Shown: positions 41,234 through 46,951, counted from the stretch's first letter. The stretch: DNA of 64,000 nucleotides from Escherichia coli (GCF_003334355.1 NZ_QOWP01000012.1); one strand, 5' to 3'. Translations and numbers: made by a program. Notes: generated by a model not told the origin, from the letters alone.

Positions 41234-41494
41234 ATGAAAAAGTGCCTCACACTACTGATTGCCACCGTCCTGAGCGGAATCTCTCTCACGGCTTATGCCG
41301 CGCAACCGATGAGTAACCTGGACAGCGGTCAGCTACGGCCCGCCGGTACCGTTTCGGCAACTGGCGCATCAAACCTAAGCGATCTGGAGGATAAACTGGC
41401 AGAAAAAGCGCGCGAACAAGGCGCGAAAGGTTATGTCATTAATTCCGCAGGCGGAAATGACCAGATGTTCGGTACTGCAACCATCTACAAATAA
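41234..41494 (+). CDS. mcbA: DUF1471/YhcN-family periplasmic protein McbA (YbiM)
   Basis: ORF 41090..41494; start placed at MKKCLTLLIATVLSGISLTAYA (signal peptide); 86 aa. Confidence 0.9.
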   Translation: MKKCLTLLIATVLSGISLTAYAAQPMSNLDSGQLRPAGTVSATGASNLSDLEDKLAEKAREQGAKGYVINSAGGNDQMFGTATIYK

Positions 41495-41508
41495 CCCCAC
41501 CAACGTAA

Positions 41509-41535
41509 CTGCATTCGCCTCTGGATGCAGTTTTC
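41509..41535 (+). terminator. Intrinsic terminator downstream of mcbA
   Basis: ctgcattc-gcctct-ggatgcag followed by tttt. Confidence 0.65.
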
Positions 41536-41628
41536 GTCTGTTTTGTAATCAAAAAACATCAAATATGAACTCAATGTAAATAAATGTATTTCTTTTTCGC
41601 GCAATGGGTGATAGAAAATCGCTCCAAG

Positions 41629-41656
41629 TGATAATGCTTATCAAAATTATTATCAC
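41629..41656. promoter_or_regulatory. Fur box in the fiu promoter
   Basis: tgataatgcttatcaaaattattatcac, matching the GATAATGATAATCATTATC Fur consensus, about 100 bp upstream of the fiu ATG. Confidence 0.7.
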
Positions 41657-41758
41657 TTGCACAAACACTATCACGGGATTAACAGTGGCATCGCATCCGC
41701 AGAGATGCTTTCTCGTGGCAGTGAAAATTTCAACATATAAGAAAAAGTCACCTGCAAA

Positions 41759-44041
41759 ATGGAAAACAATCGCAATTTCCCTGCCAGACAATTTCATTCG
41801 CTCACGTTCTTTGCCGGTCTTTGTATTGGCATCACGCCTGTGGCTCAGGCACTCGCCGCCGAAGGGCAAACTAACGCGGATGACACGCTGGTTGTCGAAG
41901 CATCAACGCCTTCGCTTTATGCGCCACAACAATCTGCCGATCCGAAATTCTCGCGTCCGGTAGCGGATACTACCCGCACGATGACGGTAATTTCTGAACA
42001 AGTGATTAAAGATCAGGGCGCAACCAACCTTACCGACGCGCTCAAAAACGTCCCCGGCGTGGGTGCGTTTTTTGCGGGTGAGAACGGTAACTCCACCACT
42101 GGCGACGCCATTTATATGCGTGGTGCCGATACCTCTAACAGTATTTATATTGATGGCATTCGCGATATCGGCAGCGTCTCGCGCGACACCTTCAATACCG
42201 AGCAGGTCGAAGTGATTAAAGGGCCGTCCGGCACCGACTACGGGCGCAGCGCACCGACAGGCTCGATCAATATGATCAGCAAGCAGCCGCGCAATGATTC
42301 CGGCATTGACGCCTCCGCCAGTATTGGCAGCGCCTGGTTCCGCCGCGGCACGCTGGACGTCAATCAGGTCATTGGTGATACCACCGCGGTGCGCCTGAAT
42401 GTAATGGGCGAAAAAACGCACGATGCCGGACGCGACAAAGTCAAAAATGAGCGTTACGGCGTCGCCCCTTCTGTCGCTTTTGGCCTTGGTACAGCGAATC
42501 TTTTGTATCTTAATTATCTGCATGTCACCCAGCACAACACGCCAGACGGCGGCATTCCGACCATCGGTTTGCCGGGCTATTCTGCCCCATCTGCGGGAAC
42601 GGCGGCCCTGAATCATTCCGGAAAAGTTGATACTCATAACTTTTACGGCACGGATTCCGATTACGACGATTCGACCACCGACACCGCCACCATGCGTTTT
42701 GAGCACGACATCAACGATAACACCACCATTCGCAATACTACCCGTTGGTCGCGCGTAAAGCAGGATTACCTGATGACGGCGATTATGGGCGGGGCGTCGA
42801 ATATTACTCAGCCCACCAGCGATGTGAATAGCTGGACCTGGTCACGCACGGCGAATACCAAAGATGTGAGTAATAAAATTCTCACCAACCAGACCAACCT
42901 GACCTCGACGTTCTATACCGGTTCTATCGGTCATGATGTCAGTACCGGCGTGGAATTTACCCGTGAAACGCAGACTAACTACGGCGTTAATCCGGTGACG
43001 TTACCCGCGGTAAATATTTATCATCCTGACAGCAGCATTCATCCCGGCGGCCTGACGCGCAACGGCGCAAACGCCAATGGTCAGACGGATACCTTCGCAA
43101 TTTACGCCTTTGATACGCTGCAAATCACCCGTGATTTTGAGCTGAACGGCGGGATCCGTCTGGATAATTATCATACTGAATATGACAGTGCCACCGCCTG
43201 CGGCGGCAGCGGACGCGGTGCCATCACCTGCCCAACTGGTGTGGCAAAAGGTTCTCCGGTCACCACCGTCGACACCGCCAAGTCGGGCAATCTGATGAAC
43301 TGGAAAGCCGGGGCGCTGTATCACCTGACGGAAAACGGCAATGTCTATATTAACTATGCCGTTTCCCAGCAGCCTCCGGGCGGCAACAACTTCGCCCTTG
43401 CGCAGTCTGGCAGCGGTAACAGTGCCAACCGCACCGATTTTAAACCGCAAAAAGCCAACACCAGCGAGATTGGCACCAAATGGCAGGTTCTGGATAAACG
43501 TCTGTTGCTCACCGCCGCGCTGTTCCGCACTGATATCGAAAATGAAGTTGAGCAAAATGATGACGGAACTTACTCGCAATACGGTAAGAAACGCGTCGAA
43601 GGCTATGAGATATCCGTGGCCGGGAATATCACTCCCGCGTGGCAGGTGATTGGCGGCTATACCCAGCAAAAAGCAACCATCAAAAACGGCAAAGATGTTG
43701 CCCAGGATGGTTCCTCATCGCTGCCGTATACCCCGGAGCACGCCTTCACCTTATGGAGCCAATATCAGGCAACCGACGATATCTCTGTTGGCGCGGGCGC
43801 ACGCTATATCGGCAGTATGCATAAAGGTTCAGACGGCGCGGTGGGAACGCCAGCGTTTACCGAAGGTTACTGGGTCGCCGATGCCAAACTGGGGTATCGA
43901 GTTAATCGCAATCTCGACTTCCAGCTAAACGTTTACAACCTGTTTGATACCGATTACGTCGCCTCAATCAACAAGAGCGGCTACCGTTATCACCCGGGCG
44001 AGCCAAGAACCTTCTTGCTCACAGCCAATATGCATTTCTGA
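41759..44041 (+). CDS. fiu: TonB-dependent catecholate siderophore receptor Fiu
   Basis: 760-aa ORF; signal peptide, TonB box region, plug and 22-strand barrel with terminal Phe. Confidence 0.95.
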
Positions 44042-44048
44042 ATCAGAT

Positions 44049-44071
44049 GTGGGGCGCAGGCCCCACTTTTT
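44049..44071 (+). terminator. Hairpin plus T5 between fiu and ybiX (likely partial terminator/attenuator within the operon)
   Basis: gtgggg-cgcagg-ccccac followed by ttttt. Confidence 0.55.
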
Positions 44072-44082
44072 GGAGAAATTGT

Positions 44083-44760
44083 ATGATGTACCACATTCCC
44101 GGCGTGTTATCGCCACAGGACGTCGCTCGTTTTCGCGAACAACTGGAACAAGCCGAATGGGTGGATGGACGCGTCACCACCGGCGCACAAGGTGCGCAAG
44201 TTAAGAACAATCAACAGGTCGACACCCGCAGCACGTTATACGCCGCCCTGCAAAATGAGGTGCTGAACGCGGTTAACCAACATGCTTTATTCTTTGCCGC
44301 GGCCTTGCCGCGTACCCTTTCCACGCCGCTGTTTAATCGCTATCAGAACAATGAAACCTATGGTTTCCATGTGGATGGCGCAGTACGCAGCCATCCACAA
44401 AACGGCTGGATGCGTACTGACCTTTCTGCCACGCTGTTTTTAAGCGATCCACAAAGCTACGACGGCGGCGAACTGGTCGTTAATGACACCTTCGGACAAC
44501 ATCGGGTAAAACTCCCGGCAGGCGATCTCGTGTTGTATCCCTCCAGCAGCCTGCATTGCGTGACACCCGTAACCCGCGGCGTACGAGTGGCATCATTTAT
44601 GTGGATCCAGTCGATGATCCGCGATGATAAAAAGCGCGCCATGCTGTTTGAACTGGACAACAATATTCAGTCGCTGAAAAGCCGCTACGGCGAAAGTGAA
44701 GAGATCCTGTCGCTGCTTAATCTTTATCATAATCTGCTGCGGGAATGGTCGGAGATCTGA
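44083..44760 (+). CDS. ybiX: PKHD-type Fe(II)/2-oxoglutarate-dependent hydroxylase YbiX
   Basis: ORF 44047..44760; start placed at [10 protein letters not shown]; 225 aa; H-x-D...H iron-binding facial triad consistent with a 2OG oxygenase. Confidence 0.9.
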
Positions 44761-44833
44761 TGCTTGAACTGCCCGAGTTCGTCCCTGGATTAGCTACACT
44801 TAACTGTACAAGTATTGATATGGGGAGGTCGAT

Positions 44834-45034
44834 ATGGCATCCGGTTGGGCTAACGATGACGCCGTCAACGAACAGATCAACAGTACAATTGAAGATGCGA
44901 TTGCCCACGCTCGGGGTGAAATTCCGCGCGGCGAAAGCCTGGATGAATGTGAAGAGTGCGGTGCCCCCATCCCGCAGGCCCGTCGGGAAGCCATTCCTGG
45001 CGTGCGCTTATGTATTCATTGTCAGCAGGAGTAA
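44834..45034 (+). CDS. ybiI: DksA/TraR-type C4 zinc-finger protein YbiI; the ORF here ends 3 residues after the second CxxC (66 codons), possibly truncated
   Basis: MASGWANDDAV...CEEC...CIHCQQE then TAA at 45032; the frame stays open for 21 more codons to a TAA at 45098 (see findings). Confidence 0.8.
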   Translation: MASGWANDDAVNEQINSTIEDAIAHARGEIPRGESLDECEECGAPIPQARREAIPGVRLCIHCQQE

Positions 45035-45364
45035 GATTTACAAAAACCAGCTTATACAGGATATAATCGCAGAGGTTCGAAAGACAGCCAGTTACGTTAA
45101 CTACAACTGGCGAGATGCATAGCGAGTATAATTTGTATTTTGCGTGTCATTCCGTGCCTTTAACGCTGCTGTGACTGCCACGCGGTATAAAACAAGTTCA
45201 TAAGTACAACAAATAAATGGTTTATCAGTAGGTTAGATATCAATCAATTTATTTGAACAAGGCGGTCAATTCTCTTCGATTTTATCTCTCGTAAAAAAAC
45301 GTGATACTCATCACATCGACGAAACAACGTCACTTATACAAAAATCACCTGCGAGAGATTAATT

Positions 45365-45625
45365 ATGAAAACTATCAATACTGTTGTTGCTGCTATGGCT
45401 CTTTCAACTCTGTCATTTGGCGTGTTCGCGGCGGAACCGGTAACGGCATCCCAGGCACAGAACATGAATAAAATCGGCGTGGTTTCTGCCGATGGCGCAT
45501 CCACCCTCGATGCCCTGGAAGCGAAACTGGCTGAGAAAGCCGCGGCAGCCGGTGCCAGTGGATACAGCATCACTTCCGCCACCAACAACAATAAATTAAG
45601 CGGTACTGCGGTAATTTATAAGTAA
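45365..45625 (+). CDS. ybiJ: DUF1471/YhcN-family periplasmic protein YbiJ (paralog of McbA)
   Basis: 86-aa ORF with signal peptide; same domain architecture and C-terminal motif (GTAxIYK) as McbA. Confidence 0.92.
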   Translation: MKTINTVVAAMALSTLSFGVFAAEPVTASQAQNMNKIGVVSADGASTLDALEAKLAEKAAAAGASGYSITSATNNNKLSGTAVIYK

Positions 45626-45628
45626 TTC

Positions 45629-45749
45629 GTAGGACGGATAAGGCGTTTACGCCGCATCCGGCAACAGATGCCTGATGCGACGCTACCGCGTCTTATCAGG
45701 CCTACAAAATCCGAACCGTTGGACGGATCAGGCGTTTACGCTACGTCCA
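45629..45749. repeat. REP/BIME cluster (three REP units) between convergent ybiJ and ybiC
   Basis: gtaggacggataaggcgtttacgccgcatccggc / gcctgatgcgacgctaccgcgtcttatcaggcctac / ggacggatcaggcgtttacgctacgtccag. Confidence 0.8.
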
Positions 45750-45853
45750 GCACAAGTATTTCCCTGTCTGTTTGCCGACAGACGCATATGCTCTAACCCT
45801 CATTGATCCTATGTTACCCTTGTTTGCCCGTCCGCCACTGGACGGGCTTTTTT

Positions 45854-46951
<1,098 letters not shown>

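Follow-up and report, generated by a model that had tools for sequence, protein, structure and literature searches.

Why should a receptor of the outer membrane and an oxygenase of the cytoplasm be inherited together across the Proteobacteria, and answer to a single iron signal? The question is posed by the fiu-ybiX locus of Escherichia coli, which we analysed at positions 41234-45625 of a 64,000-nucleotide (nt) stretch of assembly GCF_003334355.1 (NZ_QOWP01000012.1; hereafter, the window). To our knowledge, no substrate is known for the oxygenases concerned, which go by the names of YbiX, PiuC and CciO; resistance to the siderophore-cephalosporin cefiderocol has repeatedly arisen through their loss, and they are co-inherited with Fiu/PiuA-type receptors across the Proteobacteria. 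The enzyme's role, once known, would explain both a clinically selected resistance and the control of outer-membrane transport from the cytoplasm. An initial annotation of the window, made from the sequence alone, had described a Fur-controlled receptor-oxygenase operon with an attenuator between its genes, bracketed by two DUF1471 paralogues, and had suggested import followed by oxidative processing of the substrate. We conclude that this is a known core locus whose functional core is, very probably, a Fur-repressed fiu-ybiX unit with partial termination between the two genes and a Fiu route that depends on the oxygenase. The gene identities, the conservation of the Fur operator, the 3' end at the hairpin, the ancient synteny and the genetic need for the oxygenase are secure, each coming from the analysis that follows or from the papers cited.

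The two genes at the centre are readily recognised. The first, fiu (41759-44041, + strand), encodes a TonB-dependent catecholate siderophore receptor of 760 amino acids (aa), matched over residues 1-760 by the NCBIfam model NF007349 with 1503 bits against a cut-off of 686. The second, ybiX (44083-44760, +), encodes a cytoplasmic PiuC-family, PKHD-type Fe(II)/2-oxoglutarate (2OG) oxygenase of 225 aa (NF003972, 519.8 bits, cut-off 399). Together with mcbA, ybiI and ybiJ they make five genes, all on the + strand, and the identities and coordinates first given for them stand, since each protein passes the curated cut-off set for its NCBIfam model. The open reading frame (ORF) list and the RefSeq annotation of the nearest strain (99.9% identical) give the same layout. 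When the region at 40.5-46.5 kilobases (kb) of the window was compared, as a 6-kb query, with the complete E. coli genomes in RefSeq, it matched 5426 out of 5426, with at least 80% of the query covered in 5417 and a best match 99.9% identical; positions 41234-45625 are E. coli core chromosome, in the order mcbA / fiu-ybiX / ybiI / ybiJ. E. coli K-12 has the same locus, in which gene order, Fur operator and intercistronic hairpin all agree with those of the window, and the TonB-dependent transport of catecholate iron complexes by E. coli Fiu is established in the literature (PMC12004947, PMC12004943).

What places the pair under iron control is a Fur operator at 41630-41654 (+), a GATAAT-type hexamer array made of two overlapping 19-mers (GATAATGCTTATCAAAATTATTATC). 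A sigma-70 promoter for fiu is predicted, from consensus match alone (9/12), at 41608-41635 (+), with a -35 element GTGATA, a 16-nt spacer and a -10 element GATAAT that falls inside the Fur box. In a graded scan the first 19-mer (41630-41648) agreed with the Fur consensus at 14-15 of 19 positions and the second (41636-41654) at 14 of 19; a match of 15/19 was reached at only two sites in the 64-kb window, and one of 14/19 in 1.5% of shuffled intergenic sequences. Aligned across Escherichia, Citrobacter, Kluyvera, Pseudocitrobacter and Rosenbergiella, the Fur block is the best-conserved part of the fiu upstream region. At 26 of 66 homologous loci (39%) the 250 nt that precede the receptor gene contain a Fur-box-like site of at least 14/19, compared with 1.5% of random windows from the same loci, a contrast somewhat inflated by the coding DNA that those windows include. 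Even very G+C-rich receptor promoters among the surveyed loci carry Fur matches of 16/19. Chromatin immunoprecipitation with exonuclease digestion (ChIP-exo) has assigned fiu to the core Fur regulon, and the Fur-1 iModulon contains fiu, ybiX and ybiI (PMC10164565); fiu-ybiX has been given as a Fur operon in work that compared fiu promoter-lacZ fusions with and without Fur (PMC4676285). The proposed Fur control is thus borne out by the five-genus footprint, by the enrichment among homologous loci and by the core-regulon and iModulon literature (PMC10164565, PMC4676285). A ybiX free of iron regulation, which would have spoken against the operon as first described, is not what is found: ybiX is iron co-regulated with fiu.

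The fiu upstream region holds a second conserved block, ATGTAAATAAATGTATTT(A/C)TTTTT, at 41573-41596, about 35-55 nt upstream of the Fur box and present in all five aligned enteric genera. Judged by its sequence, it could be an UP element or the site of another regulator. Its half-sites are spaced by 10 base pairs (bp), unlike those of the ArcA repeat, for which the spacing is 11 bp. ArcA has been reported to bind the fiu promoter region (PMC4676285). A conserved regulatory hairpin in the fiu 5' leader (around 41693-41708) was also considered and rejected: the E. coli fold has a z score of -0.5, the RNAalifold covariation term is unfavourable (+0.36) and several pairs are broken.

The two genes are separated by 41 nt. 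Seven nt past the fiu stop codon begins a hairpin (44049-44071, +; GTGGGGC-GCAG-GCCCCAC) with a 7-bp stem, six of its pairs G-C, a 4-nt loop and a run of five T (U5 in the transcript). It folds at -17.5 kcal/mol (z = -4.6), and none of 200 shuffles was as stable. Directly 3' of the U5 tract stands the ybiX Shine-Dalgarno sequence, GGAG, at 44072-44075. The K-12 spacer reads TGATTCAG and that of the window TGAATCAG. In K-12 grown in M63 minimal glucose medium, Term-seq recorded a fiu 3' end classed as 'primary', which coincides with the final U of U5 (Adams et al. 2021; supplementary file 1 of PMC7815308), the 50+1+10-nt context being given as ACAGCC...GTGGGGCGCAGGCCCCACTTTTT/GGAGAAATTG (PMC7815308). 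The element first described as a hairpin-T5 attenuator is accordingly upheld as a terminator or 3'-end element, and the simplest reading is that of a constitutive partial terminator which sets the receptor above the enzyme. Kluyvera, Citrobacter and Pantoea retain this stem, followed by U tracts that vary. Hairpin, U tract and ribosome-binding site take up the whole spacer, so that no promoter fits within it and ybiX must be transcribed from upstream, in agreement with the Fur operon (PMC4676285) and with the Fur-1 iModulon (PMC10164565). This short interval has also been a target of selection: an insertion sequence in the fiu-ybiX spacer was selected, and accompanied the highest cefiderocol minimum inhibitory concentration (MIC; bioRxiv 2025.02.14.638246).

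When iron is scarce, Fur would leave the operator that overlaps the fiu -10 element and fiu mRNA would be made, much of it presumably stopping at the hairpin-U5 right behind the fiu stop codon. The remaining transcripts would run through into ybiX, whose ribosome-binding site abuts the U tract; the expected outcome would be receptor in excess over enzyme from one iron signal. Elsewhere the arrangement may differ. The receptor-oxygenase spacer of an Undibacterium locus (L026) holds a terminator-like hairpin followed by AATGATAAAAATTATCAAGATA, which is Fur-box-like, and an iron-regulated promoter may thus serve the oxygenase gene separately in some taxa, in place of read-through. Term-seq in M63 also recorded 3' ends inside the two ORFs, at 77 nt from the start of fiu and 344 nt from that of ybiX (PMC7815308), at K-12 positions 841454 and 838863 (around 41835 and 44426 of the window), for which premature termination, processing and an sRNA-like (small RNA-like) fragment are all possible.

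How far the pairing extends was addressed by phylogenetic profiling of fiu-ybiX co-occurrence. YbiX homologues were collected as 4628 representatives at E <=1e-3; a genome scan with a 9-sequence alignment, one genome per species, yielded 590 confirmed matches, the best 80 of which were taken as loci. These come from Gamma-, Beta- and Alphaproteobacteria, with single Verrucomicrobia and Acidobacteria metagenome-assembled genomes. A same-strand, Fiu-like receptor gene ends no more than 300 nt upstream of the oxygenase gene in 61 of the 80 and at 300-1000 nt in another seven; among the other 12 loci, six have less than 2.6 kb of upstream flank. The co-occurrence expected at the outset thus reaches far beyond E. 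coli, and the receptor-oxygenase pairing is ancient. Synteny of the pair across the Proteobacteria and its Fur regulation were already published in 2025 (PMC12004947, PMC12004943). The conserved module consists of the receptor and the oxygenase, both controlled by iron; ybiI and the DUF1471 genes were added recently, in enterobacteria.

Outside the enterics the pair travels with other companions, namely genes for PepSY_TM-like (21 loci), DUF2271 (20), DUF4198 (19), CysJ-like flavoprotein (18) and ApbE (15) proteins, and with ExbB/ExbD-like genes in 14 loci each, the last judged from example sequences only. Companion families were named by Pfam, NCBIfam having named none of the three recurrent neighbour families; examples from loci L009-L081 lie at L025:6760-7404, L072:7363-7881, L030:7884-8732, L020:2022-3515 and L014:1100-2119. 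The companions suggest a larger ancestral envelope module for iron uptake or reduction, of which two genes may have been kept in E. coli; at its fiu-ybiX locus E. coli is without the others.

What, then, does the oxygenase do for the receptor? Fiu carries iron chelates of catecholates, as well as catechol-drug conjugates, through the outer membrane, and a Fiu-type route needs YbiX activity to work at all; YbiX would act at or before uptake rather than by catabolising the imported catecholate. The genetics come from three organisms. In Pseudomonas aeruginosa and Acinetobacter, piuA-piuC likewise pairs a TonB-dependent receptor with a PKHD-type hydroxylase, PiuC, and deletion of piuC alone in P. 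aeruginosa PAO1 raises the cefiderocol MIC 16-32-fold (PMC12691625). The MIC also rises in an E. coli ΔcirA ΔybiX mutant, the effect of oxygenase loss in this species being seen only in the ΔcirA background (bioRxiv 2025.02.14.638246), and a ybiX nonsense mutant resists a catechol-peptide nucleic acid (PNA) conjugate (bioRxiv 2023.10.30.564798). In Caulobacter crescentus, cciT-cciO is, like fiu-ybiX, an operon regulated by Fur; its receptor is Fiu/PiuA-like, its enzyme is a 2OG/Fe(II) dioxygenase, and it also holds an sRNA gene (PMC12004943). CciT does not import cefiderocol, its mutants being more sensitive, not less; its function strictly needs CciO, though CciT protein rises in ΔcciO (PMC12004947).

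The enzyme itself gives some indication of its chemistry. YbiX comprises the Pfam domains PF13640 2OG-FeII_Oxy_3 (E 1.8e-14) and PF18331 PKHD_C (E 1.8e-18). Across 29 diverse homologues, D98 and R168 never vary, while conservation reaches at least 90% for H96 and H158; the H-x-D...H triad and the 2OG-binding arginine are complete in YbiX, which has no signal peptide. It shares the fold of the solved PiuC, for which crystal structures stand in the PDB in entries released in 2026; our literature search found no paper on the biochemistry or structure of PiuC. Among characterised proteins, those closest in fold are protein prolyl hydroxylases, at 13-23% identity: HIF-PHD/EGLN, Pseudomonas putida PPHD, which acts on EF-Tu, and OGFOD1/Tpa1, which acts on the ribosomal protein uS12. 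YbiX differs from these in its family-specific C-terminal helical PKHD_C domain, and its membership of the protein hydroxylases is not established. Because its nearest characterised structural relatives are protein prolyl hydroxylases, the likeliest activity of YbiX would be the hydroxylation of a protein or other endogenous target.

Cefiderocol acts in the periplasm. A bolder reading, possible though less likely than not, is that YbiX/PiuC is a protein hydroxylase or iron/oxygen-sensing hydroxylase that licenses Fiu/PiuA-type uptake by modifying a cellular target; as the substrate one would expect a protein that works in uptake, energy transduction or translation. A licensing role would explain why loss of the oxygenase blocks the entry of periplasm-acting catechol drugs. 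The prolyl-hydroxylase-like fold, the three-organism genetics and the ancient synteny are compatible with licensing and do not demonstrate it.

The same evidence bears on the import and oxidative processing suggested by the initial annotation, in which imported catecholate reaches the cytoplasm and is there oxidised by YbiX, whether for iron release, for detoxification or to maintain an import gradient. This too is possible, if doubtful. A cytoplasmic oxygenase with a complete 2OG active site, tightly syntenic and co-regulated with its receptor, is what such a scheme would call for; it has been proposed in print for PiuC, YbiX and CciO (PMC12004947 discussion, PMC12004943), and Caulobacter ΔcciO cells have lower cell iron and a de-repressed Fur regulon (PMC12004947). 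As an idea, therefore, it had precedent; as a mechanism it fits poorly with the cefiderocol genetics, with the Caulobacter receptor excess and with the fold. Loss of piuC or ybiX protects against cefiderocol, although a step that follows entry into the cytoplasm should not matter absent feedback on uptake or receptor expression. The ΔcciO mutant has more receptor, yet phenocopies receptor loss, a poor fit to a purely downstream cytoplasmic step (PMC12004947). Furthermore, the nearest characterised folds are protein hydroxylases, and our literature search found no report of catecholate turnover. These points tip the balance against processing by a modest margin only, and the scheme could be saved by feedback on the expression of the receptor. 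Synteny, Fur control, functional coupling and the idea that the enzyme processes an imported substrate are already published. The initial reading is partly supported, but is neither new nor the best-supported mechanism; the observation on which it was built is confirmed.

The phenocopy of receptor loss despite higher receptor levels is explained if YbiX makes or modifies an endogenous small molecule, such as a cell-associated chelator or a cofactor, that serves as ligand or helper of the Fiu-type receptor before import. A membrane-tethered siderophore of this kind has been proposed for CciO (PMC12004947), and the travelling of non-enteric pairs with PepSY_TM-like, DUF2271, DUF4198, CysJ-like flavoprotein and ApbE genes is in keeping with it. 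We nevertheless think it unlikely, since it does not obviously account for the lower uptake of catechol drugs supplied from outside, themselves iron binders, the accessory envelope genes are missing at the E. coli locus and no such metabolite is known.

Several points weigh against the account of a Fur-repressed, partially terminated unit that serves an oxygenase-dependent route. The Fur box is degenerate with respect to the textbook 19-mer, with 4-5 mismatches, and the canonical 19-mer found no match at <=3 mismatches anywhere within the window. The fiu 3' end could stem from processing and protection rather than from termination. The hairpin is not universal, a strict hairpin followed by T4 being present in 21 of 61 loci and some 15 spacers of less than 30 nt being without any; it is common, yet not essential to the receptor-oxygenase module. 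The best-80 sample behind the synteny count is biased towards closer relatives. A ΔybiX single mutant of E. coli shows no change in cefiderocol MIC (bioRxiv 2025.02.14.638246), and the iron-starvation phenotypes of ΔcciO fit cytoplasmic iron release from an imported chelate equally well (PMC12004947).

The unit so defined is narrower than the five-gene interval that contains it. At its flanks stand mcbA (ybiM; 41234-41494, +; NF040473, 174.5 bits, cut-off 110) and ybiJ (45365-45625, +; NF007611, 173.1 bits, cut-off 110), each encoding a DUF1471 periplasmic protein of 86 aa. McbA and YbiJ share 47% identity along their full length, and their hydrophobic leaders end in A-x-A (LTAYA/AQ and GVFA/AE). 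Behind mcbA lies an intrinsic terminator (41507-41545, +) with a 10-bp stem followed by a U-rich tract (-15.9 kcal/mol, z = -4.0, equalled by none of 200 shuffles). With so strong a terminator behind it, mcbA does not share a transcript with fiu; mcbA and ybiJ are separate transcription units that lie outside the iron module. That mcbA to ybiJ might form one functional cassette, in which the DUF1471 proteins and YbiI join Fiu and YbiX in iron uptake, is highly improbable. The common strand of the five genes, the place of ybiI in the Fur-1 iModulon and a remark that ybiI belongs to an 'iron metabolism operon' (PMC2613031) would all suit such a cassette; besides the mcbA terminator, it has against it that ybiJ has a 330-nt upstream region and a terminator of its own (45826-45857, +; an 8-9-bp G+C stem and U8, -17.6 kcal/mol, z = -4.2), which abuts the 3' end of the opposite-strand hcxB. 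Both mcbA and ybiJ are missing from the Fur-1 gene list in the part of that source available to us, its Table 3 (PMC10164565). Beside the pair, mcbA is found in three of seven Enterobacterales loci (Escherichia, Citrobacter, Kluyvera), ybiJ in five of seven and ybiI in Escherichia, Citrobacter and Pseudocitrobacter only; none of the three stands beside the pair in any of the 73 non-enteric loci surveyed. An account of the family, in the portion consulted, describes Salmonella as without mcbA and counts ten DUF1471 paralogues in E. coli, with no mention there of a link to iron (PMC4092069). By score, the BhsA model is nearer to both McbA and YbiJ than the model of the respective paralogue is, which again speaks against the cassette. 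A local tandem duplication framing an inserted cassette is not supported either, given the nearness of both proteins to the BhsA model and the confinement of the bracket to a few genera. Of the bracket first described, then, the two 86-aa paralogues on one strand remain; their membership of the unit does not, given the mcbA terminator, the patchy distribution and the nearness to BhsA.

Between ybiX and ybiJ stands ybiI (44834-45034, +; NF008243, 117.9 bits, cut-off 96), which encodes a C4 zinc finger protein of the DksA/TraR family, 66 aa long in the window. Its cysteines C39, C42, C60 and C63 (CxxC...CxxC) are invariant, as expected from the C4 zinc finger that it has in common with F-plasmid TraR and the DksA family. 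It aligns with TraR by HMMER at E 5.5e-10 over residues 12-77, the N-terminal tips lying outside the alignment, and reaches 59.3 bits against a cut-off of 59.7 for the TraR subfamily model TIGR02419 when scored on the truncated 66-aa protein. Unlike TraR, YbiI has a conserved C-terminal tail of its own, GYNRRGSKDSQLR, which is missing from the window allele. Its structure has been solved by nuclear magnetic resonance (2KGO). Blankschien et al. (2009) described ybiI as a TraR homologue clustering in 'an iron metabolism operon' and stated, as data not shown, that overexpressed YbiI rescues the auxotrophy of a ΔdksA mutant (PMC2613031).

Around ybiI there are transcription signals of its own. A candidate -10 region lies at 44794-44804 (+; GCTACACTTAA), with TACACT at 44796-44801 aligned to TATAAT in Citrobacter and Pseudocitrobacter; it resembles a sigma-S-type extended -10 element. 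Genomic SELEX (systematic evolution of ligands by exponential enrichment) found peaks of sigma-factor holoenzymes in the ybiX-ybiI spacer, that of RpoS being strongest (PMC5493296). Term-seq recorded a strong primary ybiI 3' end in lysogeny broth (LB) at an optical density (OD) of both 0.4 and 2.0, with about twice the reads at OD 2.0, and called no fiu 3' end in LB (PMC7815308). The segment 45087-45124 (+) comprises a weak hairpin (-9.5 kcal/mol, z = -1.7), which overlaps the normal ybiI stop codon, and the mapped transcript 3' end (around 45124). The conserved -10 element, the SELEX peak and the LB 3' end of its own make ybiI an at least partly independent unit: its position after fiu-ybiX and its co-expression in the Fur-1 iModulon agree with the initial annotation, and simple membership of the operon does not survive.

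In the window ybiI stops early, a point that had escaped the initial annotation. A change of AAA to TAA at 45032-45034 (K67*) leaves 66 of the 88 aa of the ancestral frame, which ran to 45100, and the protein also carries R25H (44907). Escherichia, Citrobacter and Pseudocitrobacter show no variation in either the tail GYNRRGSKDSQLR or R25. A 61-mer centred on this part of ybiI matches 4412 complete E. coli genomes, none of which carries the K67* allele, and the exact 66-aa YbiI occurs on five Logan contigs. With a conserved tail lost and R25 altered, ybiI is probably under inactivation in the lineage of the window, which would make this the incipient loss of the gene in a rare lineage.

These two changes are among four single-nucleotide differences between the 6-kb region and the nearest complete genome, all of them non-synonymous, nonsense or non-coding. 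The other two are a G to A change at 41663, in the fiu leader/promoter region 9 nt downstream of the Fur box, and Fiu R248L (codon 248, at 42501), the exact Fiu protein being present on six public contigs. Four differences in 6 kb is an unremarkable density beside the roughly 11 mismatches over 25 kb estimated from the bit score. Sequence artefact was rejected as an explanation of YbiI K67*, YbiI R25H and Fiu R248L, since the exact proteins occur on a few public contigs and the density of differences is ordinary; YbiI K67*/R25H and Fiu R248L are natural rare variants.

In the RefSeq layout, rlmF precedes mcbA, and ybiE and hcxB follow ybiJ, all three on the - strand. Downstream of ybiJ (45628-45752, +) lies a cluster of repeats of the repetitive extragenic palindrome/bacterial interspersed mosaic element (REP/BIME) type, with two 36-nt copies at 83% identity, within which positions 45632-45702 match naRNA4 (REP325; Rfam RF02564) with 78.4 bits against a gathering score of 59.5. 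The cluster probably explains the median of 11 matches per E. coli genome that the 6-kb query returned. Just past it, on the opposite strand, is annotated the 20-aa ybiE ORF.

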